Shown one piece after another: positions 2,366 through 64,000 of a DNA stretch of 64,000 bases. Source of the stretch: Nemertoderma westbladi (taxonomy: Eukaryota; Animalia; Xenacoelomorpha). The notes under the pieces were generated by a model. It did no database searches. It had not been told where the DNA came from and was given only the letters and a program-made list of their open reading frames with translations. The translations under genes and the position numbers were made by a program. Numbering within the stretch: the stretch's first letter is position 1; each line of letters begins with the position of its first letter. Where the stretch lies: NCBI GenBank assembly GCA_032718475.1, contig JAUCBJ010006658.1:21738-85737 (forward strand), written 5' to 3'.

Positions 2366-3525
2366 TGTTCGCGCTTTCAGACCTTTAGCAGTTTAACCTG
2401 CCAAATTGGGATGTCTTTTAGATGATAGATCGTCTTTAGCCTATGACAAGTATTTGATACACTACATTAGCCGAAGCCAGTCTATGCGCGATCATTCACC
2501 CGCTGGATATACCCGGGAGACTGGATTCGGAAGCCTATCCGTATTGCGGGGTAGGCCTACTGTATTATTCGACTGATCGTAATATATATAATCTCTGACA
2601 AATATTATTCACTTTCGGGAAATATTAACAGTTCCTTTTGGACGTGGCGCTCTAAATATGTAAACAGAGTTATGACTTAAACTAGACACAACGGGATGGC
2701 TATAGATTCACGTATATGGCGCATTCTTTAGGAGATGCTTTGTTATCAGTCACAATCATACACAATACTGCACAATGCTGCACACTGATCTGCCGACCTT
2801 CACTAATTTTAGTCACATATAAAGAGAACAACAGACAATACATGTAGGGCCTATAAAATAGCATTAGATTCACTTCAAACCACTTAATGTAAGTCACAAT
2901 CGTTATATGTAACCGGTCTCTCTAACCTTTAGTATATCAAAAAGATTGGGGTGTCTGATTATTTATCAGTATTCCAAATATAATATTCCATCAACAAATA
3001 TAATGAATAACCGACAGTAAATAGCAGTAAAATGTTAAGATATAAATTGATATGATCGATTTGGTATGGATTGTTTAGTGATAACAGATATACGTTCTAT
3101 AATTAAGCCTACTAATGTTGGGCTAAAGACTGAAACACGGAGGTTCCAAAGCCGGTGTTCTAGGCTGTGGACAAAATCACATACTGACTCAACTCCACGA
3201 GTTTCCATATACAATCTCCAACGCAGAGGCAAAAAACGCTCTGATTGGTCGACCGAACAAAGAAGGAACAGAGAACAAAGAAAAGCTCCATGTGTACAGC
3301 TCAGCTGTTAGCCGTCGTCATGGTAGCTACACTGTTTCAAGAGGATCCGGCGTATTGCGTCATAGAATTGCTAATTATGTCCGCTAAAGTACACATACAG
3401 AAGAAATGGCTTTTATGTCCTCTAAAACACCAGTACAGTAAGGACACGGCCTTTTATGCCTGTTAAACCAACTACAGAGTACTTTACGGGGAAAATAACC
3501 GGCTAATTCCGCAAAAGCCTTTACA
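2366..3525 (-). mobile_element. Solo LTR of the BEL/Pao family
   Basis: TG...CA termini. 5-bp TSD GACTC (2361-2365 and 3526-3530). The empty site is visible in unit 2 at about 16632-16636. Homologous to LTR 30191-31389. Confidence 0.92.
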
Positions 3526-14075: not shown

Positions 14076-14152
14076 CGTTAATATTTATTACACCAGGTCC
14101 CCCGGAATATACAGTAGTGTTGTAATTCAGTGTCATGCAACTATCACTCAAG

Positions 14153-26436: not shown

Positions 26437-26736
26437 TATTTAACAATATTAATAATACTGTGTTTATATGATATATATACAGTATATGAAAAATATGATA
26501 TATAAAATGATATGGTGTATATATGATATGAATACAGAGTTCAAAACCTTACATTTTTTAAAGTTTATGTTTATGAATTACACAACACGGACACATAAAA
26601 GACTTTTGTACCATTATATTCATAAGGCATACATATACATCTCTTAAAGTGAGAATCATCCAAACGGCCATAAAATGGCTTATCTTTCACAAAATATCCC
26701 TCCCCGTAACCAATACTATTGCATGGATAAGTGTAA

Positions 26737-27985: not shown

Positions 27986-28034
27986 TTCTACACCAAACGT
28001 ACACCGATATAGCACTGGATCATTTTTTACTGGG

Positions 28035-30190: not shown

Positions 30191-31389
30191 TGTACGCGCT
30201 TTTGAAGACCTTTAGCAGTTTAACCTGCCAAAATTTATATGTCTTTGGTTTATGTTCAGACTTTAGAAGATGACAGATATTTAATTCCAATAAACACAAC
30301 ATTAGCCGAAGCCAGCCTAGTGCGCGTCCATTCACCCGCTGGATATTCCCGGGAGACTGGGTTCGGATGTGGCTTAGTTTTTGTTATTGCAGTGAAGCCT
30401 ACTGTATTATTCGATTGATCGTTAATAAATAATTCCTGACAAATATTATTCACTTTCGGGAAATATTAACAGTTCCTTTAGGACGTGGCGCTCTACCTAA
30501 GTAAACAGAGTTATGACTTATACTACACGCAACGGTAAGGCTTATAATTCACGTATAAGGCGCATTCTTTAGGAAATGCTTTGTTATCGGTCACAATCAT
30601 GCACACTACCGGTACCGCACAATACTGCACACTAATCTGCCGACCGTCAATGAATTTGATCACACATAAAGAGAACAGCAATTGACCTATGTAGTGTCTA
30701 TCAAATAGCATTAGGTTCACTACAAACCACGATAACATAAGTCGCAATTGTTATATATAGCCTGTCTCTCTAACCTGTAGTGTATCAAGAAAATTGGGAA
30801 ATTTGGGTTCTTTATAGATGTTCTCCAAATAATAATATTCAACCAACTGATAAACACAACAGTAAATAGCATTAAGACGGTAGGTTAAGATATAATATGA
30901 TTAGACTGTATGCTGATTGGGTCGGTTGATAACAGTTATACGTTCTATAATCTAAGCCTACTAATGTTTTACTAAAAGTCTGAAACAAGTCATTCCAAAA
31001 GCCGATGTTCTGGCGTAGGATGAATAACAACACACACCTCTGTCCCTGTTGCAGGTATCTTTTACACAGAGAGGAATAGCTCTCATTGGCAGAACACCAG
31101 AATCCACAGGTTCCACGAATGTCTAAATGCCGAACTATCAGGATTTTGGCATCCCTTGGCCAACACACAAAATGAGTCACTCCGCTCGGTTGTCCTGGTT
31201 GCATACTCTGCTGCTATAGCTCTGGTTGGCCGGTAGAACATAGCAAAGATCCCCTCGTACAGCAAATCAGCCAATCAGCCGGTCGCTTGTATCATTCGAG
31301 TTAGTGAGCCTTTTAGAGTATTCCAGCGCCTGGGGGGAAACTGGATTGCAAAGCAAAAGGGCCAGTTATATCCCACAGAAGCTTTTACA
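30191..31389 (-). repeat. 3' LTR of element 1
   Basis: Direct repeat of 41126-42315. Preceded on the element strand by a short purine-rich GGGAGCGG (PPT candidate, 31390-31397). Confidence 0.93.
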
Positions 31390-31467
31390 CCGCTCCCAGA
31401 AAATGGGATTTAAGTCTATAAAATATACAAAATCACAGTTTCTAATATACGTAAATACTCTAAACAG

Positions 31468-34737: not shown

Positions 34738-37700
34738 TTACGTTATGGAGTCCCTAGATATTTGTCGGATTAGGGAAGTGGTCGTAGGAAGAGTATCTTG
34801 CCTTCCATAGTTTCCGGACAGTTTTCGGTCTCTTTCCAGTAAACATAAACGACCAGCTGGGCGATTGAGTTGTTGTGTTACTTTCTCCGCTCCCTTGGCC
34901 TGTCTAATCTCCGCCGTGGTAAGATGAGGAGGCCATTCTTCTTCTTCTTTACTTAAGAAGTCGGATCCACCTAACCAGCCTGGAGTATCTATCAGTTCTT
35001 GAGGAGTTGCTCCTCTGGAAGCGATGTCGGCTGGATTAATCGTCCCAAGGCAATGTCTCCATTGATCTACATTGAAGTTAATATCGTCATTATCTGAGGA
35101 GTATGGTGTTCCCTCAGTTAGTTCGTCCACCTCACTGCTCTCCACTTCCCATTCCCTTACTTGGTATACCTGTTGTTGAGGTAATCTCTCTTTGAGAGTT
35201 CTACGGGAAGGGCCAGTGAAGTACCAACCTACTCTAGTTCTTACCGCATAGGTTTGTAGTGGCTGTGGTTGAGCAGGCCGTTTCTCCAATGTCTCTAGCG
35301 CCTCATGCACGTTTTGGCCGATGAGTATTTGCACTCCAGGATAATCTGTGTGGAATCGAGGTATCTTAAGATGTTGGATGCTCTCATCCTCGTCCCAATT
35401 ATAAAGGTCTGCTTGGGTAGTAGCGAAGTTCTTTATAGCCACCATTTTTACCGACCTTATACCTTGTGCTCCTAATTTATCCTGGGGGGTGGACAACACA
35501 CCTACATAGTAGTCTGCCGTTAGGGTAGATTTCCAAACCTGCATAATTCCTGACATATTCAATTTAGTCCGGAATTTGGGTTGTCCAGCAAAGATATCTT
35601 CGGCTAGTTCTTGATCGATGAATGTTCTTGTGCTGCCGGAGTCAAGGAGGGCGTTCACTATGTAACTTTTGTTAGGACCATGAACTCTTACCTGCACTAC
35701 AGGTAATTCTCTGATTCCTACGTTGGAAGTTGGAGCTTTCCAAGATGGTTGTCTGGCAAAAGTAGTTGGGGGGAACTCATTGTCGGTGTCCTTTTCATAA
35801 GTAAGTGCTCGATACACCGCGGTATTGATTAGGTAACAGGATTCATTGGCGTCGGAAAATTCGTCCGTATAGAATCCTTCCATCTCAGATTCTTGATCAG
35901 TGTCATTTACATCACTGAATTGGACATGTAGTTCGGGCTCACTTACCTGACTCGGGTTGTTTCGTTCGAATTCACTGTGTAACAAGATGTGATGTTTCGC
36001 ACCGCACTTTGCACACTTTACGTCGGAGTAACAGGTTCCCCGTTGGTGTCCTTCTCTGAGGCAATTATAGCATAACCGCTTATCCCACATGACTTCACGT
36101 CTGTCTACCAGGGATTTCTTTAGGAATTCAGCACACACACTCAAACGGTGGGGCCCGTCGCACAGCGCACATTTTGGTTTGATGTTACTCACTTTACCTT
36201 GGGTAACGTTATGCACTCTCGCTCTTTCTTCGGGCTTTCTTCCGTGAATTCTCTTAGGAGACGTAGGAGGAGTTGTTGTTACCTGTTCTCTCCTGTCACT
36301 GGTTCGAGACTTATATTTACTTACGTCTTTATAGGTCTTGTTGTCATAGTAAGATTTTGCTGTGTCTTTCCCGCTGTCCTCTTCTCGAGAAGCTTGGCTT
36401 TCGCCGTCGTCAGTATAACACACTGGTGTTACCCTTCTCCTAGAAACGGGTTTCTCACTTACCTTATTTTCCGATGTTTTCTCTCTGGACTGCTTTATGA
36501 GTTGTAATTTTACTTCACTATCTAAGAAGGACATGAGATCAGCCATGGTAGGGCCTCGTCGTTGCTGCTCATTCATATAGAACACTTGCTTGTCCCAGCG
36601 TGTACATACTCCACCCTTTGGTAAAGTAGAGACTACGGCTCCAATAACCATGGAACTCTGATATTCATGAGACTTACCTAACCAGTCCAATTGTCTACAG
36701 ATCTCCTGAATCTCATCGGAAAACTCTATAATCCCGCTACTAAGGAACTTTCGGGGGGCTACTAATTTTGCATACAAATACTTAGCTATGTTATCCTTGT
36801 TACCATACCTGATGTTTAATGTATCCCAAACTTGTCTTAATCCATCTGGATGTCCAATAAACTTTAACGCCATTAACTTGGGAGGTCCTTCCAAGCACTT
36901 GATGAGGAATCTAAGTTTCTCTCCGTTAGATAGTACAGAGTTCTGTATGCTATATTTGTAATATTCATTGAAAGGTAACCATTTCATCTCATCTCCATTG
37001 AATTTGACGATTTCTCCCACTTTGACCGCTTGGCGGGCTTCTGTTCTAGCCATCTGACGCGTAAAGCTTTCTTGGGCCATCGTGTTATTTAATATCGAAT
37101 TATCGGTATATAAATTTCCCGGATTATTATCAGGTCTATAGGGAATATCATTAACAACAGGTTCATAATCACCCTTAATAGGGTTTGCTATAGGAGTTTC
37201 TACTTCACTAGCAGTATAGATGCGTGTAGGCTCCACACCTTGCGCATGTAATACTTCAGACCTAACAGGTTGACACAATGTTACAGGGGGTATTGGTATA
37301 CCCTTTTGTATATTGACTAAGTTGTGCGTTCTAGCGCGATACTTTGCTGCACTTCTTGCAATTCTACCCTACTTTCCCTTAATGTTCCCTTGAGTTGGTG
37401 GACAGTCTCCTGCATCTGTCCGAGCAGGAGATTCATCCCCCGTCGTCCCTCCTCTACCCACTCGACCGCCAAAGCGTGAGTCGCCAACATTGTAGCGGGC
37501 AGACGCGGGACGACGGGAGACAAATCTTTGATTTCTCTCTCAGCGTCCAGGACAGGGATATTCTCATGGACTGTTCTACCGGGTACAGGCAGTGTAGTAC
37601 TGTGTAAAGGGAATTTAGAGTTAAGCTCTGGAAGTACAGGGGTCTCTAGCACAGGAGTGGCTTTGGGAACGACAGGCCTAATTATTTCAGGCTCATCAAC

Positions 37701-38855
37701 AATGGTAGGGAGTCTTTTGACCTTAATAATTTGGTCTGTGGGTTCTTTACTACCTAAGTCTGTGCTAGCTAGTTGTCTTCTAACCGCTGGGGGCAAATCA
37801 GGCAATTTGTGACGGTGAGATGTTTTTCTACGCCTGCTTAGACGAGATCTATTTCCTCTGCCTTCAGGATCTGTAGTCTCGCCTTCTTCCGATGATGTGT
37901 ATTCTTGGCGTTTGGGAGTAGATCGACTCATCATCTGCATTTGACTAGCAGTTAACTGTTTATTTATGCAGTCTTGCGTCTCTTGCAGATTTTCCAACTC
38001 CAGTTGGGTAGTCTCCTCAGACGCTCTCCGTTCTGCTTCTGCCACTGCCTTTGCCGCATTTCTTTCCGCTTCTGCTTCTGCCATTGCCGCTGCCGCCTTT
38101 CTTTCCACTTCTGCTTCTGCCATTGCCGCTGCTACTGCTGCTGCCTTTCGGTCCTCTATCTGTTTTTTCTTTATTTGTTCTTCTTGGACTCTAACGAGGT
38201 GGAGTTTTTCATCAAATTTAGCTTGGTTTGCAGCTAACATTTCCGCATCGATTGCGTCCAACACAAGCTTGGTTCCTTCACTATTAGGGCGAAGTCCAGA
38301 CAGTCATCTCCTCAACTCTTCGTCTCCTAGGAATCGCTGATAGTCTGACAGATAGATGTCAATGGCGTCTCTAGTTTGCGGCTTCTCTGCTGCTGTTAAT
38401 TCGCTTTCCACTTCGCTTTCCACTTCGCTTTCCACTTGAGAAGAAGTGGCGTCAGTTGATTCTTCATAGGTTGGCCACTCATCATAAACCGTATCCGCCA
38501 TCTTCGCTCCGCGTTCGGGCGTCCGCTCAACAGTATCCGAACTACTGGAGCTATCGGGCCGCTGAGAACTAGGTTCTTGGCTAGGAGGTTGCTGCTGTTT
38601 GATAGCTGCTTCTTGATCCCGCTTGACTTGGGCCCGAGTGCCGATGATAGACCTACGCTGTTCTACTAGCCTAGGGTCTGACACTACTACTGTAGGGATG
38701 GCCTTTCTTACAATAGTAGGTGACTTAGACTTGGATCTAGGATGTTCTATACTTTGATCTTGGTCACAGATCCTTTTAATACGCTGTCTAAGTCTAATAC
38801 TCATTCTAACACTTTCTAAGATACTATCTGACAGTGATTTGGTTGCGTCTGACAT
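34738..38855 (-). pseudogene. BEL/Pao gag-protease with RNase H remnant, frameshifted
   Basis: Three ORF pieces colinear with 59786-63307. Knuckles CALC..H..C, CYNC..H..C, CAKC..HH.LLH, protease LLDSGS, then WRH...NPADIASRG and W.GG.DFL...EWP. No YVDD and no integrase. Confidence 0.9.
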
Positions 38856-40239
38856 GTTTGTTTACACAGTTGAATGCCTACGGCTATAAATACAGTTAAA
38901 GTAAGTCTAGTAATTCAGTATCACTGTTAGCCTAATAATTAATTACCGATACTGCTACTCAGTGTAGCGTGATATATATATAATATATTAGAATACCAGT
39001 ATGCTTATAGTATATATATAAGTATTATTACAGACTAGATTTGTCACAGAGTACCGGTATATAATTTTAGCACAAATATATATAAATATATAATAGGCCT
39101 ATCGTGAATACCGGTATACAGCTGACACTTATAGTATATATAAGTATAATTATTACAGACTAGAATTAATTACAGAATACCGGTATGATTTCAGCCTAAA
39201 TTTATAGAATAAATATAAAAAGCCTATTGTAAATACCGGTATGTCAATTATTTTAAAAATAATTGAATTTCTGAATGTTAGGGGTTACTTGGTTACTTTA
39301 CTAACTCTATTACCGTTATTTAAGCAGCAGTCCAACTGATATTAAGACCTAAGTGTTGTATAACAGGCCTACTATTTTATTAATAGATTTAGTGGATTTA
39401 TATGTACCCGTATGAGGGGTTTTGTTACAATATTGAAATAGCTGTTATTATTTCTGGGAAATAATCACTACACAGAAGCTGTGCGCTCTCAGTGAAGTGC
39501 TACTTATTGGACACTAAAACAAATAATTCTACTTCCTAAGTTACTTATCTACGAATTACTTACGATACGGGTGAGATTAAATCTCTAAATAAACACAAAA
39601 AATTACAAAAAAAACACAAATACGAATTTTTAGGGTAATTTTACAAGAAGTCTACAAACCAGCCTAACAAAGGGTTAGAAATCTGGTTATTACAAACGGA
39701 CAGGATACTACGGTATTTGAAAATAATAAGTAGTAGTAAATACACTGCGTTGTCCAGATAGGAAAATACCACCGCCTGACGACCTATAGCCGTATCGCTA
39801 TAGGTACTACGTTATGTATCACGGAGTGTCCCTACCTAGAAGTTAATTACCGCGGTCTACCAGAACCAACGTGCCTATTAACCACTTTACAACACAAATA
39901 TACTGCCTACACACTAATTACCTTCGGAAAGCACTGTACACTAAACCCTAAATTAGGTACAAATACTGGTACAACAAATAATCAGTAGTTAAAAATACTT
40001 GAACAGCTAAAAGAACCACGGCATCTGCTGGAGCGACCGGAGCACAAAGTCACCAGTCTTTACCTACGCCAAGCAGCCCGTGTAGTACCGGGGTTAATTT
40101 AACTATAGCGGTATATATAACAAGCACAATTACTGTAGGAATAAACTTGGGGACATGAATGTTGCGAATAATCGCATAAACTCTGAATAATAAATATTAC
40201 GCTACCCGTACAGAATACTCAAACAAAATACAAACCAAA

Positions 40240-40752: not shown

Positions 40753-41114
40753 TTATCTGAACAATCTGAGCAGACTCACACGTCTTCAGCTCAATATTAA
40801 CTTACATGTAAATAAAACCGACAGAAATAAGTAAGCTCCAAAAGAAACAAGGGGTGTACAGTCCCTAATCTCTTAAACAGCCTACCGGTATGCAATAATC
40901 AAAATCGAATAATACTAATGTACTTATACTGGAAGTACCGGTTAGGACAGTTGGGCCTACGGACCTACAGAAGTACCGGTTCTGGCAGTTGGACCTACGG
41001 ACCTACAGCAGTACCGGTTCTGGCAGTTGGGCCTACTGACCTACAGAAGTACCGGTTCAGGTTTACCGGTCGACCGGTACTTTCAACTTTATTGCTTACT
41101 GCAATAAAGAAGCA

Positions 41115-41125
41115 ATAACTGTTAT
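41115..41125 (-). promoter_or_regulatory. Non-tRNA primer-binding site candidate of element 1 (ATAACAGTTAT)
   Basis: Directly follows the LTR CA. 11/11 complementary to the LTR site at 30929-30939 and 10/11 to the site at 41864-41874. Confidence 0.65.
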
Positions 41126-42315
41126 TGTACGCGCTTTTGAAGACCTTTAGCAGTTTAACCTGCCAAAATTTATATGTCTTTGGTTTATGTTCAGACTTTA
41201 GAAGATGACAGATATTTAATGCCAATAAACACAACATTAGCCGAAGCCAGCCTAGTGCGCGTCCATTCACCCGCTGGATATTCCCGGGAGACTGGGTTCG
41301 GATGGGGCTTAGTTTTTGTTATTGCAGTGAAGCCTACTGTATTATTCGATTGATCGTTAATAAATAATTCCTGACAAATATTATTCACTTTCGGGAAATA
41401 TTAACAGTTCCTTTAGGACGTGGCGCTCTACCTAAGTAAACAGAGTTATGACTTATACTACACGCAACGGTAAGGCTTATAATTCACGTATAAGACGCAT
41501 TCTTTAGGAAATGCTTTGTTATCGGTCACAATCATGCACACTACCGGTACCGCACAATACTGCACACTAATCTGCCGACCGTCAATGAATTTGATCACAC
41601 ATAAAGAGAACAGCAATTGACCTATGTAGTGTCTATCAAATAGCATTAGGTTCACTACAAACCACGATAACATAAGTCGCAATTGTTATATATAGCCTGT
41701 CTCTCTAACCTGTAGTGTATCAAGAAAATTGGGAAATTTGGGTTCTTTATAGATGTTCTCCAAATAATAATATTCAACCAACTGATAAACACAACAGTAA
41801 ATAGCATTAAGACGGTAGGTTAAGATATAATATGATTAGACTGTATGCTGATTGGGTCGGTTGATAACATTTATACGTTCTATAATCTAAGCCTACTAAT
41901 GTTTTACTAAAAGTCTGAAACAAGTCATTCCAAAAGCCGATGTTCTGGCGTAGGAGGAATAACAACACACCTCTGTCCCTGTATCTTTTACACAGAGAGG
42001 AATAGCTCTCATTGGCAGAACACCAGAATCCACAGGTTCCACGAATGTCTAAATGCCGAACTATCAGGATTTTGGCATCCCTTGGCCAACACACAAAATG
42101 AGTCACTCCGCTCGGTTGTCCTGGTTGCATACTCTGCTGCTATAGCTCTGGTTGGCCGATAGAACATAGCAAAGATCCCCTCGTACAGCAAATCAGCCAA
42201 TCAGCCGGTCGCTTGTATCATTCGAGTTAGTGAGCCTTTTAGAGTATTCCAGCGCCTGGGGGGAAACTGGATTGCAAAGCAAAAGGGCCAGTTATATCCC
42301 ACAGAAGCTTTTACA
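41126..42315 (-). repeat. 5' LTR of element 1
   Basis: Upstream of gag on the minus strand. Differs from the 3' LTR by about six substitutions and two small indels (counted by eye). Confidence 0.93.
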
Positions 42316-43770: not shown

Positions 43771-43859
43771 TATTGAAATAACAATGAATTAATATAGTTG
43801 ATTTGTGATTTGACATAATATTTTATTGTTATTTGTTAATGAACAAGCCAATACATATA

Positions 43860-49532: not shown

Positions 49533-52040
49533 TTAACATGGGTGTTTAGGTAGCCTTGGTGACGGAATTCTTTGACAATAACCGCACTTAAGTTTCATAT
49601 CTTTATGTATAGAGTCGACATTTCGTTTTAGTTTGGCTTTTGTAGCAAATGATTTTCCACAATCAGAACAGTTGTACTTGATATCTTTATGAAAGTAGTT
49701 CACATGGGTGTTTAGACTCCTTTGTTGACAGAATTCTTTATTACAATAACCGCACTTATGTTTGATATCTTTATGTATTGAGTCGACATGTCGTTTTAGT
49801 TCGGCTTTTGTAGCAAATGATTTTCCACAATCAGAACAGTTGTACTTGATATCTTTATGAAAGTAGTTCACATGGGTGTTTAGACTCCTTTGTTGACAGA
49901 ATTCTTTATTACAATAACCGCACTTATATTTGATATCTTTATGTATTGAGTCGACATGTCGTTTTAGTTCGGCTTTTGTAGCAAATGATTTTCCACAATC
50001 AGAACAGTTGTACTTGATATCTTTATGAAAGTAGTTCACATGGGTGTTTAGACTCCTTTGTCGACAGAATTCTTTATTACAATAACCGCACTTATATTTG
50101 ATATCTTTATGTATAGAGTCGACATGTCGTTTTAGTTCGCCTTTGTAACAGAATTCTTTATTACAATAACCGCACTTATATTTGATATCTTTATGTATTG
50201 AGTCGACATGTAGTTTTAGTACGGCTTTTGTAGCAAATGATTTTCCACAATCAGAACAGTTGTACTTGATATCTTTATGAAAGTAGTTCACATGGGAGTT
50301 TAGATTCCCTTGCTGACTGAATTCTTTATGACAATAACCGCACTTATATTTGATATCTTTATGTCGTATAGAGTGTATACAGTCGATATGTTGTTTTAGT
50401 TCGGCTTTTGTAGCAAATGATTTTCCACAATCGAAACAGTTGTACTTGATGAAACCTTTGTGGACAAAGTTAACGTGGGTGTTTAGACTCCTTTGCAGGC
50501 TGAATTCTTTATTACAATAATCGCACTTATGTTTGATATCTTTATGTATTGAGTCGACATGTCGTTTTAGTTTGGCTTTTGTAGCAAATGATTTTCCACA
50601 ATCAGAATAGTTGTACTTGATATCTTTATGAAAGTAGTTCACATGGGAGTTTAGATTCCCTTGCTGACTGAATTCTTTATGACAATAACCGCACTTATAT
50701 TTGATATCTTTATGTCGTATAGAGTGTATACAGTCGATATGTTGTTTTAGTTCGGCTTTTGTAGCAAATGATTTTCCACAATCGAAACAGTTGTACTTGA
50801 TGATACCTTTGTGGGCAAAGTTAACGTGGGTGTTTAGACTCCTTTGCAGGCTGAATTCTTTATTACAATAACCGCACTTATGTTTGATATGTTTATGTAT
50901 AGAGTCGACATGTTCTTTTAGTACGTCTTTTCTAGAAAATGATTTTCCACAATCAAAACAGTTGTACTTGATATCTTTATGAAAGTAGTTCACATGGGTG
51001 TTTAGATTCCTTTGTTGGCTGAATTCTTTAGGACAATAACCGCACTTATATTTGATATCTTTATGTCGTATAGAGTGTATAGAGTCGACATGTCGTTTTA
51101 GTTCGGCTTTTGTAGCAAATGATTTTCCACAATCGAAGCAGTTGTACTTGATGAAACCTTTGTGGACAAAGTTAACGTGGGTGTTTAGACTCCTTTGCAG
51201 GCTGAATTCTTTATTACAATAATCGCACTTATGTTTGATATCTTTATGTATTGAGTCGACATGTCGTTTTAGTTTGGCTTTTGTAGCAAATGATTTTCCA
51301 CAATCAGAATAGTTGTACTTGATATCTTTATGAAAGTAGTTCACATGGGTGTTCAGATTAATTTGCACGCAGAATTCTTTATTACAATAGCTGCAATTAT
51401 ATTTTATACCTTTATGGATAGAGTTAACATGCTTATTTACACCAAGCTTACATTTAAACTGTTTCTCACAATACTCGCATTTATACTTATTCTTGATGTC
51501 TTTATGAAGGGATTCTATATGTCTCTCTAAATTTCCTTTGTTATTAAATAATTCATTGCAATGCAAACAGGAACTGGTATCTGAAGAAGATACCAACTCC
51601 CCAACCGTTTCATTAGAACTACCTGACTCTGTTGTTGCACAACTGATTGTCGGTTCTGTACATTCAGTTCCAATAGGCCTACCATAAGAACACTCTGGGC
51701 TGTCGTTTTCCCGTTTTTCAACAATAAAAGAATCTCCAGATGGTTCATAAGAAATATCTTCGTCATCTAGTAAAGGGACAACATCTACTCTACCGAACAA
51801 ATTGTTGTGATCTTCGATGGGAGATGATCCATATACGCAGTTCTCTTGTTTAACATCAAGAGAATAGGGGGTGGAGTCTGTTGGTTCTTTCTTTATAATT
51901 ATACAGTCTGTTGGTTCTCTCTTTATAATTATAAAGTCTGCTGGTTCTTTGTTTAGGATTATATAGTCGGTTGGTTCGCTCTTTATAATTATACCGGCAC
52001 CAGATGATTTCTCTTTCAATAAATTAGTATGTTGATCCAT
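49533..52040 (-). CDS. C2H2 zinc-finger protein, about 23 fingers, paralog of 7571-8905
   Basis: 835-aa open frame with a near-identical N-terminus and alternating CGYC/CxDC fingers. Two fingers have C>Y and one has H>N. Confidence 0.88.
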   Translation of the reverse strand: MDQHTNLLKEKSSGAGIIIKSEPTDYIILNKEPADFIIIKREPTDCIIIKKEPTDSTPYSLDVKQENCVYGSSPIEDHNNLFGRVDVVPLLDDEDISYEPSGDSFIVEKRENDSPECSYGRPIGTECTEPTISCATTESGSSNETVGELVSSSDTSSCLHCNELFNNKGNLERHIESLHKDIKNKYKCEYCEKQFKCKLGVNKHVNSIHKGIKYNCSYCNKEFCVQINLNTHVNYFHKDIKYNYSDCGKSFATKAKLKRHVDSIHKDIKHKCDYCNKEFSLQRSLNTHVNFVHKGFIKYNCFDCGKSFATKAELKRHVDSIHSIRHKDIKYKCGYCPKEFSQQRNLNTHVNYFHKDIKYNCFDCGKSFSRKDVLKEHVDSIHKHIKHKCGYCNKEFSLQRSLNTHVNFAHKGIIKYNCFDCGKSFATKAELKQHIDCIHSIRHKDIKYKCGYCHKEFSQQGNLNSHVNYFHKDIKYNYSDCGKSFATKAKLKRHVDSIHKDIKHKCDYCNKEFSLQRSLNTHVNFVHKGFIKYNCFDCGKSFATKAELKQHIDCIHSIRHKDIKYKCGYCHKEFSQQGNLNSHVNYFHKDIKYNCSDCGKSFATKAVLKLHVDSIHKDIKYKCGYCNKEFCYKGELKRHVDSIHKDIKYKCGYCNKEFCRQRSLNTHVNYFHKDIKYNCSDCGKSFATKAELKRHVDSIHKDIKYKCGYCNKEFCQQRSLNTHVNYFHKDIKYNCSDCGKSFATKAELKRHVDSIHKDIKHKCGYCNKEFCQQRSLNTHVNYFHKDIKYNCSDCGKSFATKAKLKRNVDSIHKDMKLKCGYCQRIPSPRLPKHPC

Positions 52041-54635
52041 TATGAAATCTTAATTAAGTATTAATCGATAAATTAAATACAGGTGGCAGTAGTTTAATGT
52101 ATATCACGCTCTTCTCTATTATAAATTTCAATAAATAATCTCAATATCAACCAGCAGAACACAGAAAGTTCCACTCCTAAGTCCTAACCTGACTGCCTGA
52201 AGACGACTAATTAACATATGGCAGTATGGTGTAGTGATGTCGGCCACAAGCCTGTATGTCTGTAGGGCTCTATGTAGGTGTAGTTTAAGAACTTCTAAGA
52301 AAAACTATTGTCAATACCGGTACGCGCTATAACTGTATAAAGTGCCATAAGAGCACTTGTGGCCGTAACGATTGTGACACAAACCTTAGGAATCGTTATT
52401 ACTGTATTATACAGTATAAATTAATTTGTATCATTTATGACACCGGTAGGATGTAATTATAATTATACTGTAATCAGGTAATGTACACATAATAACAATA
52501 ACCAAAATATCAGCTTACAGTACTACATCAGTACATAGAACAGTAGAACGTATGGCTGCTTACATATAATCTACAAAATTTGAAAATTATGTTTATTTAC
52601 TCTTGCAATTCTCATTTTAGCACCAAAAATGTTAGGTGTGTTCAACTGCGGAATTAAGCCTTCCATTGAAATCGGCGTACCAAAAAACCTTTATGTAATT
52701 GAAATAAACACCATTCCTACAATTCTTGTTGTTTTCACTAATTTGAAAAATGCTGGTTACTTGCACTTTTCATTTTAGCACTAAAAATGGTAGATGTGTT
52801 CAATTGCGGAATGTAAAAAGCCTTCCATTAAAATCAGCATAAAAGAAAACCTGCCTGAAATCGATATCAATACTTAACCCTAATACCTTACCATTTTTTG
52901 AAATTCAGATTTACGTGAAAATCGATATTGTCACAACCGTCAGACCGTTACGAAACTATGTCACGACCGTTCGCTACGCTGGTTAATTGATTGCCACATT
53001 CTCTAATATTATTATATTGCCATACTGTTAATTTCATTTGAAACTCTATCTATTAAAATGTTAGTCTGACATAAGTCAGTAAGTAACGGCAAATAAGTAC
53101 ATTAAATTCGATAGAAATTTATAATGTGTAGGAGAGTCTCTAAAAAGCTTGTCCATTTCAGGCACGACCGTTACGCCAACTTTAAACCGGAATAAAATCA
53201 ATAAAACGTAATGTATTCCAGAGCGGTTTCGATTTTATATAATATATAGTAATAATATAGTAATATATTTTCAATAACAACTTTCAATAATATACTTTCA
53301 ATAAATTATAAATTATTTTCAATTACGTCCATTGCTGCATTGACCAAATTACAGCAAATGAAAATTTATAGAACTCTCCCCATATCAAAATATCAAATTG
53401 TTGTAAAAAAAATTTTGCCCCCAGTCACGGCCCCCAGTTAACTCGATGGCATGGCCTTGTATACCTGTATGGAATCCATCCAAAAAGTGCGCCGGATAGC
53501 GCGCCGACCATTATGCGCGCCGATGCAATTTCGAAGCAAACCCCGCCCCTACGAAATTTTTAAGCGTGCCGCACATACAAACAATTTTGAAGAGCGCCGC
53601 GCCAATCAGCCAATGCAATTTAAATTTTGAAGGAGTGAAACCAGTCTGCCAATGTCAGTACTGCACTGCAGCTGTACCTATATCCCTGTACAGCAGTACC
53701 ATACAACCATACAGCAGAAAAAATTTCGGCCGAGCGAAGCGAGCCAAAACTTTTAAACAGCTAAATGCAATTTTTAAGGCACTTCCGTAATTGTTAAACC
53801 AATAAATCAGCGCCGGTTTTAATCAGCGCCGGCTACAGCCACTCCCTCTGCCCTCTCTGCTCTGAACTTCTGGCTGCAGCCACAGCAACCAGTGCCCTTG
53901 GTGATTGACTGCTCTGCTCTAAGTGCTAAGGGAAGTAACACTTATAATTCTTGTAATACTGCCCAATCTGCGCAATCGAATGATTAAATCGCAGGCACCG
54001 CTGTTGCCTCTGCGCTGCGCTGGACCTTGGCACCCACTACTGCACTATGTATTATGTTACTTATGTACAGTGGGTACTATACATACAAAATGTAAACTAT
54101 TATCAAAATTAGGCCTATTAATCAATTCATAAAAAATGCGAATAATTATGTAATTGTTAATTAATGAACTAAGAAATTGCAATTGCCGCATTGCCAGTCG
54201 TTTATAAACAAATGAAAGTAATATAAGACTATTTTAACTTCTGAGTGACCATTTATGAATTAGGACAATTAAATATGAATACACATAGATATAAATACAA
54301 CAAATAACCGATTTCGTAATTTAGCCAATTTCCCTGCAAATAGGTATGACCTGCTGCCTCCAATATTGGATTGTGGTGTAGAATATCCAGTAAGCCAGGT
54401 AAATCAGAGCTGCTGTATCTCCCTTGCCCGTAGGAAAGAACACCTGGCCAATCACTACTCTTGACTGTTATTAAGCTAGTATGCAGGCAGCCTAAGATAT
54501 TTCACTGACATTCCAATAATTTATAATCTTCTCAATTTGACAGATAAACTATAAGGCATTTATTGTACTGTCCCAACACCCAATGATGTGGAGTAATCCT
54601 TCCCAATAAATTGCTTTAGTTCACCAAAGCTGTAT

Positions 54636-56592
54636 TAATCTAAGTACACCATTTAAGAAACTACAACTACCATTTCTTAATACTATAAGAACAAACGCAT
54701 ACTTAATAAATCCCAGAACACATAATATTAAAATACCTACTACTAGGAACAACTACGGATTTAAAAGTTTAACTGTCAGTGCTACAAAAATCTGGAACGC
54801 ATCTCTTATTACTCTAAAACAAATAGGAAAACTAAAAACTTACAAGGATAGCATTAAAAATCACTATTATACAATATATGACCGTGACTCCATAACATAG
54901 CAACAAGTAACTTACACAACTTAGAATATACTGTTATAAAGTAAACAATTAATGTGTGTACGTATACGTGGGTGGTGTGGTATGTGTGAAATAATGGTGT
55001 TTGTAATTGTAAGCGCAGCGGCGCGTTCCCTGGCGCTCAATACGGGTTCAGGAAGTCGCGATCTACGATAGACGCCGTTAGATGTTTATATAACCGTATT
55101 AACATCGCTATACAACCAGCAGGCGGGCACGTTTATTGCGTCTTTGTAGACTTCCGGAAATGTTTTGACTCAATAAACCGCGAGATACTCTGCATGAAAC
55201 TATCGAATGTGGGATTGAGCCGAAAGTTTATCAGCGCGATTTGGGCCTTGATCTCGATAAACTTCGTGTGCATCTGCGTCGAGTGCACGTGTTGGAACCG
55301 ATCGCTCAAACGGTTGGAGTAGTCCAAACTCACCCCACTATTATTTAGTCTCTTCATGGCAGACCTTCCCGCATACATTGTGTTCGCTACTATCTGGGTG
55401 ATAATGTACGCCGACGACCTAGTAATTGTCGGAGACTCGATCGCAGACGTACAATCTACTGTAGTTTGAATAAACTCGCTGATTATTGTAAACTTAACAA
55501 ACTCGAAGTCAATATCACAAAGACTAAAGCCGTTAAGTTTCGCTGTGGAGGTAGATTGGCACGCACTGATGTTCTGGAATACAACGGGCAAGTATTGGAA
55601 TTCCAGAACTGTTTTCAATACTTAGGAGTAATCCTATCAACCAAAAATGGGGCTAGCGGGCATTAAGGTCACATGTATTCTAAAGGCATATCAAGTTGTG
55701 TATTAATCGCTACAAAAGTTAATCTTCGTATAGTATCCCAACAATCGGCACAACGTTTATGGCAATCAATCGTCCTTCCATCGACAACATACGGGTGCAG
55801 TATTTTCACGAGTAGCGACATTACACAACTGGACCACGTGCAACGGGTGCGAGCGTTCCACTGGAAGTTATGGTGCGGAATCAGCAAGTTTGCCTCGTCT
55901 ACTGCAATCCTCCACGCCATTGACCATCCAGACGCGTCCGACATAGACGTTACTGGACTCTCCGGTTTACGCCGCCGCTATGCCGCACAGCTGATATCAA
56001 ATGGATACAACCACCGCATGCACCCAATCCCAGTTGTTGGAGGCCAGCTGATTGCTGTGAATGCTGGATGTGTGGTTGCTCAGCGACCACCAAACAACAT
56101 TACCTGGAATGCCAGGCTATCCCCCTTTGCAGATCCCGCCTACGAACAGCAATCTGGCTGATGACCACTGATCGACCCCAAATGCGCAGTTAATACGTCA
56201 AATTTTAATCATTACGGAATATCCTTTTTTACATAAGTTACGGAACTAATTAAATTTTATCTAATTATATGGTCACATTATTGTTTTAATTTAATTTTAA
56301 CTAGTATCTCAGTTGTTCCATATGTATGGATTATAAATATTAACAATCAAATTGTAAGTATGGGGTGTGTGTGTGTCTACGCGCCAATGTATTGGGTATG
56401 TATGTATAACATCAATATGACTCCAGTGGATACACAGTAATGTAATTAGTGTAGGTCAAGGATTTGTCTGCCATACATGACGCTTATTCCCATAAATTAT
56501 CAGCCAGGGCCACCCTCCATGCTGCCTTCAATTATTTTACATATTTGAAGTTTTGGGAATAAAATAATTTATTATTATTATTATTATTATTA
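54636..56592 (+). mobile_element. CR1/L2 LINE 3' end (paralog of 12869-13480), interrupted by another LINE
   Basis: Near-identical sequence and (TTA)n tail. Confidence 0.8.
55014..56349 (+). mobile_element. 5'-truncated, deleted LINE RT fragment
   Basis: QYGFR..RST, FVDFRKCFDSI, PLLFSLF, YADD and FQYLG motifs. 9-bp TSD AATTGTAAG (55005-55013 and 56350-56358). Absent in unit 1. Confidence 0.85.
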
Positions 56593-58486
56593 GACAGATA
56601 CCGTAGACTGATAGAGGCGTGTAGTGTGTAGCTGTCGTGCTGTATATGCCTAGGGTTAGTGTAGTAGAGCAGAGGTAAAGTACAGAAATAGCGTTAGGTC
56701 CAAATCGGTACCCTGCAGACATTTTACGTTAATTACGCTAATCTAACGTTAGACTTTAGTCTGTTTTAGGTTAGAAAAATAAAGTTATAAAAATAACTTA
56801 AGAACAAACGTTTTCTAACTTCTTATAATCGTTTACAAACTACAGTACATGTTTATAATCAACTAAACCCAAACGTTAAACTGAGGTTGAATTTTAACAT
56901 CAATTTTTAACGTTATTTTGAAACGTCTGATATTGGTTAAATTTAATCATGTACAAAAATGACTAAACCCAAACGTTAAATAAATGTTGAATTTTAACAT
57001 ACAGTAGATTTGTAACGTTATTTTGTAACGTCTACATTGGTAAAATTCAATCATGTACATAAATCACTAAACCCAAACGTAAAAATTACGTTGGATTTTA
57101 ACATAGATTTTAACGTTATTTTGAAACGTCTGACATTGGTTAAATAGAAACATTCTTGTATAGAAAATTTTAATGTACAGTAATTTAGTCACGTTAATAT
57201 TTATTACACCAGGTCCCCCGGAATATACAGTAGTGTTGTAATTCAGTGTCATGCAACTATCACTGTAAAAGCTTTTGTGGGATAACTGATTCGTTTGCCT
57301 TGTTGGCCAGTTCCCCCCCAGTCGCTAAGAATACTCTCAAAGTGATCTACAGCTAAAAATAGTGCAAGTTACCAGCTTATTGGCTGATTTGCTGTACGCA
57401 GGCATCTGGGCTCTGTTTAATCGGCCAACAAGCCTAGGGAGGTTGCGTCATAGCCTTGTTTTGTATCTCCCAATAGAATTTGAGTTATCCTTGATGTTGA
57501 CCTATCACAGAGTACTGAACTGAAAATTTCCTATCTCACTGCTCTTTCTCTGTGTTGAACGGGAGCTTCGTGGAATAAGGGAGTTGGTATCCTCGTATAG
57601 AGCAGTAGTCACGAGTTTTTCAAAGCCAAGAAAGAACGGCTTTGTAGTGTTTTATGCTTTCTGCTTTTTAGCTCAACACTAGGAGGTTTAATTATAAGGA
57701 CATATATCCTTTATCTGACTGATGATCAAACAAAACTGACCTGGCGGCTGACCAAACGCACCTGATGACTGATTGATTGTCTTAACTCAAAACAACTGGC
57801 CCGATTGATCTGTCAATACTGTACTGCTATTTGTTATCGGTTATTCATTATATTTGTTGATGAATTATTATATTGGAATAACGAGAAATAACCCCGACAC
57901 CCAATATTCTTGATATACCGAAGGTAAGAGAGAAAGGTTACCAATAACGATTGTGACTTATGTTAAAGTGGTTTGAAGTGAATCTAATGTTATTTGATAG
58001 ACCCTACATGAGTCAGCCTGTGTTCCTTTTATATGTGACTAAAATCAGTAAAGATTGGCAGATTAGTGTGCAGTATTGTGCAGCATTGTGTGCGAGTGAG
58101 TCTGTTAAAGAAACATTTCCTAAAGAATGTGCCATATATGTGAAATATAATTAAACCATATCGTTGTGAGTAGTTTAAGTCATAACTCTGTTTATATAGA
58201 TAAAGCGCCACGTCCTAAAGGAACTGTTAATATTCCCGAAGGTGAATAATATTGTCAGAGATTATATAATACTGTCAGTCGAATAATACATTAGGCTTAC
58301 ATAGCAACAAAATTAAACCGTCGAACCCAATCTCCCGGGAATATCCAGCGGGTGAATGGTCGCGCACGGATTGGTTTCGACTAGTGTAGTGAATGAAATA
58401 CTTGTCATAGGCTAAAAAGCGATTTAATATCTAGAAGACATCTTAATTTGGCGGGTTAAACTGCCAAAGGTCTAAAAGCGCGAACA

Positions 58487-58497
58487 TTAAAGGATAT
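58487..58497 (+). promoter_or_regulatory. Non-tRNA primer-binding site candidate of element 2 (TTAAAGGATAT)
   Basis: Directly follows the LTR CA. 10/11 complementary to ATATCCTTTAT at 57704-57714. Confidence 0.65.
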
Positions 58498-59785
58498 TGC
58501 TTCTTTGTTGCAGTAAGCAATAAAGTTGAAAGTACCGGTCAACCGGTAAACCTGAACCGGTACATTCTGTAGGTCAGTAGGCCTAACTGTCCCAACCGGT
58601 ACTTCCGTATAAGTACACTAGTATTATTCGATTTGATTGTTGTATACCAAGATCAAGTATATTTAACTACTGATTATCTGTTGTACAAGTACTCGTACCT
58701 AATTTAGGGTTTAGTGTACAGTACTTTCCGAAGTAATTATTGTAGACATTATATTTGTGTTGTAAAGTGGTTGATAGGCACATTCGATTAGCTCTATTAA
58801 CTTCTAGGTAGGAACACTCCGTGATACATAACGTAGAACCTATAGCGATACGGCTATAGGTCGTCAGGCGGTGGTATTTTCCTATCTAGACAACGCAGTG
58901 TATTTACTACTACTTATTATTTCAAATACCGTAGTACCCTGTCCGTTGTAATAACCGGTTTTCTAACCCTTTGTTAGGCTGGTTTGTAGACTTCTTGTAA
59001 AAATACCCTAAAAATTCGTATTTGTGTTTTTGTAAATTTTTTGTGTTTATTTAGAGATTGTAATTTCACCCGAATTGTACGTAATTTGTAGTATTAAGTA
59101 ACTTAGGTAAATTAGTATTATTTGTTTTAGTGTCCTATACGTAACACTTCACTGAAAGCGCACCGCTTTGTGTAGTGATTACTCCCCAGAAATAATAACA
59201 TTTATTTCAAACATAGACAAAACCCATTAAAACGGGTATATATATTATAAATCAAATCTAACGATTTATAAATAGTAGGCCTACCATACAACCACTAGGT
59301 CTCCATATCAGTTGGACTACTGCTCAAATAACGGTAATAAAGTAAGTAAAGTAACAAAGTAACCCTAAAGTAACAGAAATTCAATTATTTGAAATAATTG
59401 ATATACCGGTATTTACGATAGGCCTATTATCTTTATTTCTATAAATCTAGGCTGAAATTATACCGGCACTTGTAATTAATTCTATTTCAGAATTATATAT
59501 CCTACAAACTGTAAGCTGTATACCGGTATTCCAGATAGGCCTATTATATATTTGTATATATTTGTGTTAAAATTATACCGGTATTCGGAGATAAACCTAG
59601 TCTGTAATAATACTTATATAGTTATATATACTATAAGTATACCGGTATTCTAATATATTATATATATATCACGCTACATTGAGTAGCAGTACCGGTAATT
59701 AATTATTAGGCTAACAGTTAATACTGAGTTACTAGACTTGCTCAGACTGTAATACAGCAGTAGACATTCAACGGTAAACATAGTC

Positions 59786-62700
59786 ATGTCTGATACTAAG
59801 CAGAACCTGTCAGACAGTATATTAGATGTAACTATCTGCGACTCAGATAGAGACGCACAACCGTCTGGTCGTAAATCTAGTTCACCTCCCACTGTGAGGA
59901 AGGTCATCCCTCCAGTAGTAATAACAGAACCTAGGCTAGTCCAACATCGTAGGTCTATCATAGGCACTCGAGCTCAGGTCAAGCGGGACCAACAAGCAGC
60001 GGAACAGCAACAACCCGCTAGTCAAGAACTTATTCCTCAGCGGCCCAGCAGCTCCAGTAGTGAGGATACTGTAGAGCTGACACCCGAGAGCGGAGCAGAG
60101 AGGACGGATGCGGTTTATACGGATCCCCTTCTCATCCTTCCTGCAGCCATGCTCGCTGGGTTATTGATCGCGGTGGAAGAACACCAGATCGATTGGGCGA
60201 GGAGTCAACGATCAACTAGAGATAGTTATGCGGGGTACACGAGGGAAGAATTGAAGTCTATTGTTGAGTCGCAATGGAACTTCCCCGGACCCGGACTCCC
60301 GTTTGATTTATCAGAAGCTGCCTGGGAAGACATACACCGGATGGGAGTAGCCAAGGAAACCATCGATCCAGCTGTATGGAAGAGGTCCGCAGCCGGATAC
60401 GCACAGGGATTCTTCAGCTCTATGGAGCGAGTAGAAAGACAACTATTTAAACAACCTCAAGGACCTCAAGAGCAGGAACAGCTGCTTTATCAAGTTAGAG
60501 AAAGAGTTCTGCGAATTAGGCTAATCTTATCCGCCTTTGAGGAGGCTTCTAAAAGAAGACAAGACACGTCGTTGCAAGTTGCCGTAAAGACTTGGCTTCA
60601 AAGGGTGAGACACCAGGTTCAAGGAGCAGCTCAGTGGAAAGTTCAGTTGGAGGAGCGCTCAACCCATGGAGAATCGACGGACGCTACTTTTTCCCAAGTG
60701 GAAAGTGAAGCGACGGCAGAGAAACCGCATAAGAAGGATGCCATTGATATCTATCTGTCAGACTATCAGCGTTTTTTGGGAGATGAAGAGTTGAGGAGAA
60801 GGCTAGAGGGACTTAGCCCTAATAGCGAAGGAGCCAAACTTGTGTTAGATGCGATTGATGTGGATAGGTTAGCGGCGAACCAAGCTAAATTCGATGAACA
60901 ACTCCGCATCGCTAGAGAAAGGGAAGAACAAGTAAGGAAAAAACGTATAGAAGACAGAAAGATAGCAGCAGTGGCAGAGGCAGAAAGAAAAGCGGCAGCG
61001 GCAGAGGCAAAAGCGGCAGCGGCAGCGGCAAAAGCGGCAGCAGTGGCGGAAGCAGAACGAAAAGCGGCAGCGGCAGAGGCAAAAGCGGCAGCGGCAGCGG
61101 CAAAAGCGGCAGCAGTGGCGGAAGCAGAACGAAAAGCGGCAGCGGCAGAGGCAAAAGCGGCAGCAGCAGAGGCAAAAGCGGCAGCAGTGGCGGAAGTAGA
61201 ACGAAAAGCGGCTGAAGAGATCATCCAACTGGAGTTGGAAAATCTTCAAGAGAAGCAAGACGACTTCAGTAAACAGTTAGCAGCTAGTAATATGCAGATG
61301 ATGAGTCGATCTACTTCCAAAAGACAGGGGTATACATCATCTGAGGAAGGCGATACCACCGACACTGAAGGCGGAAGAAATCGATCTCGCCTAAGCAGAC
61401 GTAAAAGAACATTCCACCGGCAGAAATTGCCTGATTTGCCTCCAGCTGTTAGAAGGCAACTAAATAACACCAAAGTAGGTAGTACAGAACCCACAGACCA
61501 AATGATTACAATAGAAAGACTCCCTACTATAGTAGATGAGCCTGAAATAAGTAGGCCTGTTTTTGAAATCACCCCTTCGGTAATAGATACACCTGTGCTC
61601 CCTGAAGCTACATATAAATTCCCTCTGCATAGCACTAAGCTACCTGTGCCCCGTAGAACTGCCCAGGAGACAGTTCAGGTCCTGGACCCCGAGCGAAATA
61701 TTCCAATTTTGTCGCCCGTTGTCCCTTGTCTGCCCGCTACGACGTTGGCGGATCCCGTTTCGGCGGTTGATTGGGTAGACGAGAGACGGCGGGGGATGGA
61801 TATTCTCCTCGGAGAGATGAAGGAGAATCGGAGACTCTCCTCCCAACAGGTCCGAGAGTTGGAAGGGACTGTCCAACATTTAAAGGGAACAGTGAGGGAA
61901 AGTAAGTTAGAGTTGCAAGAAGTGCAGCAAAATATCGCGCTAGAGCGCGATAAATTAGTAAATTTACAAAAGGGTATACCACCACCCCCTGTAACAATGT
62001 GTCAACCCATTAGGTCTGAAGTATCTCATGCGCAAGGTGTGGAGCCTACACGCATTTATACTGCTAGCGAAGTAGAAACTCCTATAGTGAACCCTATTAA
62101 GGGTAATTATAGACCTGTTGGTAATGATATTCCCTATGGAACTGATCATATTCCGAGAAATTTATATACCGATAACTCGATATTAAACAGCACGATGGCC
62201 CAAGAAAGTTTTACGCGTCAAATGGCTAGAACCGAAGCCCGGCAAGCGGTAAAGGTGGGAGAGATCGTCAAGTTCAATGGAGATGAGATGAAATGGTTAC
62301 CTTTTAATGAATATTACAAAGATAACATACAGAACTCTGTACTATCTAATGGAGAAAAACTTAGATACCTCATCGAGTGCTTGGAAGGATCTCCCAAGTT
62401 AATGGCGTTAAAGTTTATTGGACATCCAGACGGATTAAGACAAGTTTGGGACACACTAAACATCAGGTATGGTAATAGGACTAACATAGCTAGGTATTTA
62501 TATGCGAAATTAATGGCGCCCCGAAAGTTTCTTAGCAGCGGGATTATAGAGTTTTCCGATGAGATTCAGGAGATCTGTAGACAACTAGATTGGTTAGGTA
62601 AGTCTCATGAATACCAGAATTCTATGGTTGTAGGAGCCTTAGCATCTACTTTGCCCAAGGGTGGAGTAGGTACACGCTGGGACAAGAAGGTGTTATATAT

Positions 62701-64000
62701 GATGGAACAACAACGACGAGACCCTACCATGAGTGATCTCATGTCATTCTTAGATAGAGAAGTGAAATTACAGCTCCTAAGGCAGTCCAGAGAGAAGACA
62801 TTGGAAAACAAGGTAAGTGAGAAACCCGTTTCTAGGAGAAGGGTAACACCAGTATGTTATACCGACGATGGTGAAAGCCAAACTTCTCAAGGAGAGGACA
62901 ACGGGAAAGACACTGACAGATCTTATTATGTCAATAAAATGCCTAAAGATCAGGTAAGTAAATCCGAGTCTCGACCCAATGACAGAAGGGAACCGGTACA
63001 AAAAACCCTTCCTACGTCTCCTAAAAGAATTCAGGTGAGAAAGCCCGAGGAAAGAACAAGTGTGCACCACATAGCACAGGTTAAAGTAAGTAACATCAAG
63101 CCGAAATGTGTGCTGTGCGACGGGCCCCACCGTTTAAATGCGTGTGATAAATTCCTGAGGAAATCACTTGAGGATAGACGTGAAGTCATGTGGGATAAGC
63201 GGTTGTGTTATAATTGCCTCAGACGAGGACACCAACGGCGAACCTGTTTCTCTGACATAAAGGTGTGCAAAGTGTGGTGCGAAACATCATATCTTGTTGC
63301 ACGCTGAATTCGATCGAAATAGTCCGAATCAGGTAAGTGATTCCGAGCTACATGTCCAATTCAGTGATGTGAACGACACTGATCAATCTGAGATGGAAGG
63401 ATTCTATACAGATGAGTTCTCCGACGAAAACGAATCCTGTTACATGATAAATACCGCAGTGTATCGAGCACTCACATATGAAAAGGATACAGACAACGAC
63501 TTCACTCTAACTACTTCTGAACGACAACCATCTTGGAAAGAGCCATCTTCCAATGTAGGGATCCGAGAGTTTCCTGTGGTGCAAGTAAGGGTTCACGGAC
63601 CTGAGAGGAGTTATGTAGTAAACGCCCTCCTGGACTCCGGCAGCACAGGAACATTCATCGATAAAGAGTTAGCCGAAGATATATTTGCTGGACAACCCAA
63701 GTTCCAAACTAAGCTCAATATGTCGGGCATTATGCAAGTTTGGAAATCTACAATAACAGCTGATTATTATGTCGGAGCGTTGTCCACCCCCCAGGACGAA
63801 TTAGGAAAAAACAGCATAAGGTCAGTGAAAATGGTGGCTATAAAGAACTTCGCTACTACTCAGGCAGACCTTTATGATTGGGATGAGGATGAGAGCATCC
63901 AACATCTTAACATACCTCGATTCCAGACTGATTATCCTGGAGTGCAAATACTCATCGGCCAAAACGCGCATGAGGCGCTGGAGACGTTAGAGAAACGACC
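59786..64000 (+). CDS. BEL/Pao gag-protease polyprotein (1-bp frameshift near 63262, partial)
   Basis: 1173-aa ORF with DUF1759-like region and zinc knuckles. An extra G relative to element 1 shifts the frame before the third knuckle. LLDSGS protease motif near 63630. Confidence 0.88.

Follow-up and report, generated by a model that had tools for sequence, protein, structure and literature searches.

The 64-kb window, that is, the whole stretch of DNA analysed here, contains three members of one LTR family: two elements, designated E1 and E2, and a solo LTR. E1 lies on the minus strand, has two LTRs that are 98.75% alike and is flanked by a 5-bp target duplication, AGTTT. E2 lies on the plus strand and extends past the window edge; its left end is confirmed by a paralogous empty site near 14148. 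The LTRs, coding regions and short sites of these three members are as follows.

41126..42315, minus strand: 5' LTR of E1, with TG...CA ends
30191..31389, minus strand: 3' LTR of E1, with TG...CA ends
57264..58486, plus strand: 5' LTR of E2, 1223 bp, with TG...CA ends
2366..3525, minus strand: solo LTR of a third subfamily, with a 5-bp target duplication, GAGTC
34738..38861, minus strand: E1 gag-protease, followed by an in-frame Pao-type RNase H C-terminal motif
31390..31399, minus strand: polypurine-tract-like sequence before the E1 3' LTR
59753..63998, plus strand: E2 gag (DUF1759, zinc knuckles) and protease frames
57704..57714, plus strand: E2 LTR site (candidate self-primer), positions 1–10 of which pair with the primer-binding site (PBS)
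58487..58497, plus strand: E2 PBS position, with 58488–58497 complementary to 57704–57713
41864..41874, minus strand: LTR site in the E1 5' LTR, differing from the 3' LTR copy at 41870
30929..30939, minus strand: LTR site in the E1 3' LTR, 11/11 complementary to the E1 PBS
41115..41125, minus strand: E1 PBS position, without TGG and near-palindromic
3081..3091, minus strand: site in the solo LTR, a third variant

E2 occupies one copy of a segmental duplication (5395–14148 and 47914–57264, 87–98% identity), the other copy of which has the empty site; C2H2 zinc-finger genes are found in the duplicated segments at 7571–8914 and 49533–52049. Fragments of non-LTR retrotransposons, with frames for endonuclease and RT, lie at 18144–19914 and 43843–45584 and look RTE-like. 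Arrays of a ~160-bp repeat (22283–23461 and 28026–29253) flank a region, 25330–28378, that presumably contains a transposase-like frame, and several further tandem arrays occur elsewhere in the window.

The initial annotation had placed this family in the BEL/Pao superfamily, an assignment supported by the Gag proteins of E1 and E2, both of which contain DUF1759, and by their Pao-type relatives. The Pao domain (PF05380) was present in all 20 of the top Gag-protease relatives scanned, which were the best 20 of at least 150, and likewise in five of five longer homologs. The TG...CA ends, 5-bp target duplications and polypurine tract are also features of BEL/Pao LTR elements. Membership in the Tf1/sushi group does not apply, since the proteins are Pao-type and not a Ty3/gypsy chromovirus polyprotein. 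Neither E1 nor E2 has the 18-nt PBS for tRNA-Arg or tRNA-Gly given in the ICTV profile, and the claim that TGG is missing after the 5' LTR holds for both elements within 20 nt of the LTR end. This missing tRNA-type PBS is the departure reported here and is no ground to doubt the protein-based placement. E1 is non-autonomous, because RT, integrase and most of RNase H are absent, and its gag is interrupted. Between its pol remnant and 3' LTR lies an extra reading frame in four pieces (33079–31493, minus strand) with Cys/His motifs; it had no Pfam match above threshold, and its Atlas matches below 0.9 lean towards zinc knuckles as a lead only.

The central proposal of the initial annotation was that the sequence following each 5' LTR is complementary to a segment inside the LTR of the same element. 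All six 11-mers on which this proposal was built are present at the positions listed above, and the complementarity of each PBS to its own LTR site is as described, 11/11 in E1 and 10/11 in E2. The three LTR sites occupy the same columns in an alignment of the three LTR types, as expected of homologous positions, and sit at the 3' edge of a conserved LTR block. The proposed polarity, in which the 3' end of the would-be primer faces the LTR terminus, was likewise borne out, as were the distinct variant in the solo LTR and the single substitution in the E1 5' LTR copy, at 41870. The PBS and the LTR site are separated by ~750–780 nt, while the spacer between the PBS and the LTR end is 0–1 nt. Tf1-type self-priming is characterized by the same arrangement: a PBS adjoining the LTR that can pair with a stretch of LTR origin and has changed in step with it.

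The compensatory change is seen in the comparison of E1 with E2, which differ at 4 of 11 PBS positions and at three LTR-site positions. As claimed, all 3 LTR differences coincide with PBS differences that restore pairing; the chance that all of them would both coincide and complement, given 4 PBS and 3 LTR differences, is p=0.0009, for a covariation that rests on two phased elements. Shuffled LTRs contained an equally good match anywhere in 4/3000 cases for E1 (11/11) and 76/3000 for E2 (at least 10/11), and control leader 11-mers reached the level of the element's own PBS in 5/2005 (E1) and 43/1993 (E2) cases. The best cross-family matches were 7/11 for the E2 PBS with the E1 LTRs and 8/11 for the E1 PBS with the E2 LTR, and pairing within a family had duplex energies of −10.5 and −10.2 kcal/mol, against +0.8 and −0.5 kcal/mol for pairing across families. 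The duplex, at about −10 kcal/mol, is A/U-rich, with only two G-C pairs at the site. Because the E1 PBS is near-palindromic, E1 alone cannot separate an inverted from a direct repeat, and it is E2 that shows the inverted relation. The single mismatch in E2 is T-T and falls at the base adjoining the LTR end (58487).

Sequence variation at these sites was examined in four of seven public sequencing runs, all of them in the form of contigs, with depths that are summed contig depths and not copy numbers. The mismatch in the E1 5' LTR at 41870 is rare: the other base accounts for 36572/36663 of the depth in run X1, 34577/34577 in X3 and 341/341 in X4, and the contigs of these runs agree here with the E1 3' LTR copy (among the 40 of 237 variant rows listed). 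On the E2 junction two variant rows reach 1%, at 58498 and 58491. An A at 58498 makes up 92% of the X1 depth (56 contigs) and 90% of that in X3 (22 contigs) and is present in the one differing contig of X5; it complements T57703, so that the duplex is one base longer upstream in most E2-type sequences. The claim that pairing does not extend upstream of the first A is thus true of the copies in the window, but most E2-type public contigs pair one base further. No variant at 58487 is listed at 1% or above, and the T-T mismatch looks general among E2-type sequences. Because this mismatch adjoins the LTR end and no such variant is listed at that level, the shared core is 10 bp; the proposed 11-nt duplex has complementarity above chance, but a 10-bp core describes it better than a fixed 11-mer. 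The change from A to C at 58491 (4% of the X1 depth, 9% of that in X3) is the sole PBS variant listed at 1% or above, and by sequence, unphased, it would pair with the solo-LTR site at 10/10 core positions, one of them as G-U. One X5 contig diverges from 58491 onward and has yet another core. X5, which may be an RNA run, gives no coverage upstream of 41862 and no joint at the intron-like segment described below, and these two results carry no weight as to transcription start or splicing. Among the variants listed at 1% or above on the E2 junction, none matches the solo-LTR site by Watson-Crick pairs throughout and none is an E1-type PBS. Both results count against self-priming; divergent contigs were possibly clipped.

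A wider view of BEL/Pao leaders came from 79 metagenome loci fetched by an alignment of Pao sequences, 46 upstream regions of which were examined; each of the others starts within coding sequence, offers hardly any DNA upstream or is a tandem repeat of a different entry. In 7/46 regions, an ACA end is followed, at a distance of 0–3 nt, by bases that complement the exon-exon junction of a canonical LTR intron over 11–15 nt, and these matches represent six distinct sites, two loci (L016 and L018) being alike. The parallel-complement control gave 0/46 junction matches. A looser test applied to 14 loci with a known LTR start classed 7/14 as junction-type, with one control match, and a 13/13 junction match in L019 was found afterwards by eye. 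The LTR end of several junction-type loci was inferred from the match itself; among the seven loci in which it was fixed independently, four are junction-type (L010, L016, L025 and L049, with one G-U), two are TGG-type and one is neither. Two of the 46 regions (L039 and L044) have a TGG-type site, which is set off from the LTR end by 5 nt, more than the spacer of junction-type loci. Contiguous matches flagged in 7/46 regions were left uncounted, their LTR ends being unverified and a control lacking. The junction-type loci are listed on one line.

L003, L006, L010, L016, L018, L019, L025, L031, L049, L055, L072: junction-type, with complementarity of 10–15 nt

The introns of these loci are 76–185 nt long where measured, and their spacers of 0–3 nt bracket the 0–1 nt of E1 and E2. 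Junction-type BEL/Pao elements and the E1/E2 family are alike in superfamily, PBS position, self-complementarity and the absence of TGG. They differ in that the junction-type site exists only after intron removal and lies 50–225 nt from the LTR end, whereas that of E1 and E2 is contiguous in the DNA and ~750–780 nt away. A splice-junction primer was considered for E1 and E2 themselves and rejected: no junction among 2181 GT-AG pairs in E1 and 2667 in E2 beats the contiguous site, and the pairs of E2 yielded no junction match of at least 8 nt. The relatives bear on E1 and E2 loosely, for the nearest proteins to E1 are only ~30% identical, and in a Gag-protease tree without an outgroup E1 forms a long, unsure branch (2.28) among BEL/Pao rows; the smallest starred set of that tree with E1 holds 18 of 41 rows, junction-type and TGG-type mixed. 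An exact search of metagenome contigs for the LTR motif gave 0 stretches, and a search of viral contigs with the E1 protein gave none, the Pao alignment having yielded one there. The suggestion that self-priming had an origin special to the E1/E2 family is doubtful, as other BEL/Pao lineages also show the signature.

Several additional features of the predicted RNA surround the paired segments.

58449..58466, plus strand: predicted hairpin in U5, close to the LTR end, with its pairing preserved in both elements
58503..58525, plus strand: predicted hairpin of 9 bp, lying 5 nt past the PBS and preserved in both elements with one A-U to G-U change
41064..41079, minus strand: perfect 16-nt palindrome in the E1 leader, with one mismatch in E2
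57924..58000, plus strand: 77-nt intron-like segment (GT...branch...AG), kept in all three LTR types
41709–41633, 30774–30698 and, in the solo LTR, from 2926: other copies of the intron-like segment

The predicted hairpins on both flanks of the PBS were counted for self-priming. ACCGGT words are repeated in the leader, with six in E1 (41079–40937, minus strand) and four in E2 (58534–58600) in the stretches scanned, and these words and the E1 palindrome represent a possible RNA dimerisation or packaging signal, judged by their sequence. The junction formed by removal of the 77-nt intron-like segment does not pair with the PBS, and since the segment lies downstream of the LTR site, self-priming needs it either unspliced in the packaged RNA or not to be an intron at all. 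A length of 77 nt is also that of the candidate primer-forming introns in L010 and L049.

When the 850–880-nt 5' RNA was folded without constraint, the probability of the duplex was ≤0.001 (for E1, the 5' copy with its mismatch was used), and imposing the duplex on E2 cost 5.7–6.9 kcal/mol. Set against a ~780-nt long-range pair inside a particle, this modelled outcome is a weak negative for self-priming. Stem scans gave no convincing Tf1-type three-duplex 'pretzel'; one candidate long-range stem of 8–10 bp did not stand out from the rest obtained in that scan. A further long-range stem with covariation, joining the LTR ~180–195 nt from its end with the leader, was rejected because equal stems arise elsewhere, and a loose-end contig row suggests that many copies are without the compensating base for it. 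An upstream extension of the duplex by 4–5 bp across an internal loop was also rejected, shuffles being as good in 617/2000 and 290/2000 cases. ARAGORN identified no tRNA in the window, and no Rfam family was found within 57200–59800.

The E1/E2 family probably primes minus-strand DNA with a 10–11-nt stretch of its own LTR RNA, to judge from the sequence of the paired sites. BEL/Pao identity, the absence of TGG, and the complementarity, position, polarity and compensatory change of these sites are matters of direct observation, and self-priming is the best reading because each of its three premises, placement in BEL/Pao, lack of a tRNA-type PBS and self-complementarity that covaries, is supported. 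In the proposed mechanism the element RNA would fold back over ~750–780 nt so that the LTR segment anneals to the PBS, RNase H, as in Tf1, would cut the duplex where the primer has its 3' end, and RT would extend the primer across U5 to yield minus-strand DNA; for E1, the enzymes would come from an intact relative. We infer these steps of folding, cleavage and priming by analogy with Tf1. Plus-strand synthesis would then copy the self-primer into the PBS and pass changes in the LTR site on to it, which would explain the covariation. Retroviral-type reverse transcription regenerates a tRNA PBS by copying the tRNA itself, and the 4/11 PBS difference between sister subfamilies therefore fits a self-encoded primer better.

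Where the primer lies in the transcript separates two forms of self-priming. A strict copy of the Tf1 arrangement, in which transcription begins at the A of the 11-mer and the opening 10–11 nt of the RNA serve as primer, as the initial annotation had it, appears rather unlikely. Several observations point its way: pairing ends at the first A in both window copies, pairing upstream of the core is no better than in shuffles, the contiguous site is unsurpassed by any GT-AG junction, LTR conservation increases in a core-promoter-like manner ~50–70 nt upstream, and the A is preceded by T, a pyrimidine-purine start being typical of Pol II. They are offset by the ~90% of E2-type contig depth that pairs one base upstream of the A, by the absence of a TATA-like word 25–30 nt upstream of the 11-mer, where the only upstream one in E2 is 11 nt away, and by the relatives, in which the site is an internal exon-exon junction. 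A site some way inside the transcript, as in the splice-junction relatives, is a serious candidate that still falls short of an even chance. The conserved acceptor-like and initiator-like words at 57660–57703, with no canonical donor further upstream, could by their sequence mark the real RNA start or a trans-splice site.

Explanations other than self-priming have to account for the same pairing. The duplex might be real and selected yet structural, serving packaging, dimerisation, 5'-3' pairing with the 3' LTR or translation control, while another primer is used. Covariation, after all, is evidence of pairing rather than of priming, hairpins and palindromes abound in the leader, and fungal GalEa copia elements without a PBS have a conserved hairpin that is unexplained in the available text of PMC5445492. 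This reading is nevertheless improbable in view of pairing that is primer-like in polarity and lies within 0–1 nt of the LTR end, the absence of any other PBS and the use of the same position by relatives. Priming by a host tRNA half, an internal tRNA segment or another small RNA, with the LTR match secondary, would be in keeping with the tRNA priming that ICTV gives for Belpaoviridae (PMC8742986) and with the half-tRNA priming without TGG known in copia lineages from the available text of PMC6317226. Such a primer is hard to reconcile with a site that has only two G-C pairs, with 4/11 PBS differences between sister subfamilies that are each matched by their own LTR, or with the additional PBS variants in public runs, and it is highly improbable. 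Even less credible is a chance match in A/T-rich DNA aided by the palindromic E1 site; matches of at least 10/11 do occur in ~2% of leader 11-mers (35/2005 and 43/1993), but chance would also have to produce the same alignment columns in E1 and E2, three compensatory changes and the parallel pattern in relatives against a null control.

The self-priming reading and the junction-type loci can be joined in a tentative account, put somewhat below an even chance, in which tRNA-independent self-priming is widespread in BEL/Pao, often with a spliced primer, and E1/E2 represent a high-copy, intron-free form whose primer is cut out of an internal LTR segment. If it is true, self-priming needs no 5'-terminal primer and arose apart from Tf1/sushi. 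Comparing the contiguous form in E1/E2 with the splice-junction form of the relatives puts to the test whether the primer has to sit at the cap, and the origin of the priming modes would be testable by RNA-end mapping. BEL/Pao would, if the reading holds, be a third LTR superfamily free of tRNA dependence, following Tf1/sushi, where this has been demonstrated, and copia TAR, where it is predicted, and BEL/Pao elements without a tRNA site after the LTR would be accounted for. The corresponding annotation rule would be to seek LTR self-complementarity, also across LTR introns.

The Belpaoviridae profile describes host-tRNA-primed replication from an 18-nt PBS for tRNA-Arg or tRNA-Gly and calls BEL/Pao replication poorly understood (PMC8742986). 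E1 and E2 resemble the members of this family in LTRs of up to 1.2 kb, a Pao-type gag-pol and a polypurine tract of ~10 nt, and are unlike the profile in having no 18-nt tRNA PBS (PMC8742986). The terms PBS, primer and tRNA are absent from the main BEL/Pao survey (PMC3118150) by term search; the available text of PMC3601003, PMC5445492 and PMC8220671 makes no mention of BEL/Pao self-priming, and that of PMC6317226 has nothing on BEL/Pao priming. A published report of BEL/Pao self-priming was not found in a search lying outside most subscription journals, Repbase reports and supplements, so that an earlier mention is possible, and splice-junction BEL/Pao primer sites were not found as a published class. 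Self-priming has been predicted from LTR-PBS complementarity for Tcn1 and for Ty1/copia TAR elements (Houba, Osr-1), according to the available text of PMC6317226, and such predictions outside the Tf1/sushi group give separate origins a precedent; TAR and Tcn1 differ from E1/E2 in being plant elements of other superfamilies in that text (PMC6317226).

The closest mechanistic parallel is Tf1, in which, in the available text of the sources, bases 1–11 anneal and RNase H cleaves between base 11 and base 12 (PMC7175516; PMC4600332; bioRxiv 10.1101/2022.12.06.519325), and the primer acts within a three-duplex structure (PMC7175516; bioRxiv 10.1101/2022.12.06.519325; PMC4600332; PMC5341516). Plus-strand DNA terminates in PBS sequence (PMC7175516). 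The pairing in E1 and E2 is a real feature and probably a variant of a known mechanism, found in a superfamily described as tRNA-primed. As far as the available literature on them describes, Tf1/Tf2 of S. pombe, Tj1, Tosmo1-3 and the Tf1/sushi Ty3/gypsy elements also have no tRNA PBS and ~11 nt of LTR-derived complementarity. In comparison with what is described there, E1 and E2 belong to another superfamily, with Pao-type Gag and Pol, and have a 10-bp core, a 0–1-nt spacer and ~750–780 nt between site and PBS; a 5'-terminal primer and a three-duplex pretzel are hypothetical for them. E1 and E2 work like Tf1 in the respects tested, but they do so outside the Tf1/sushi group.
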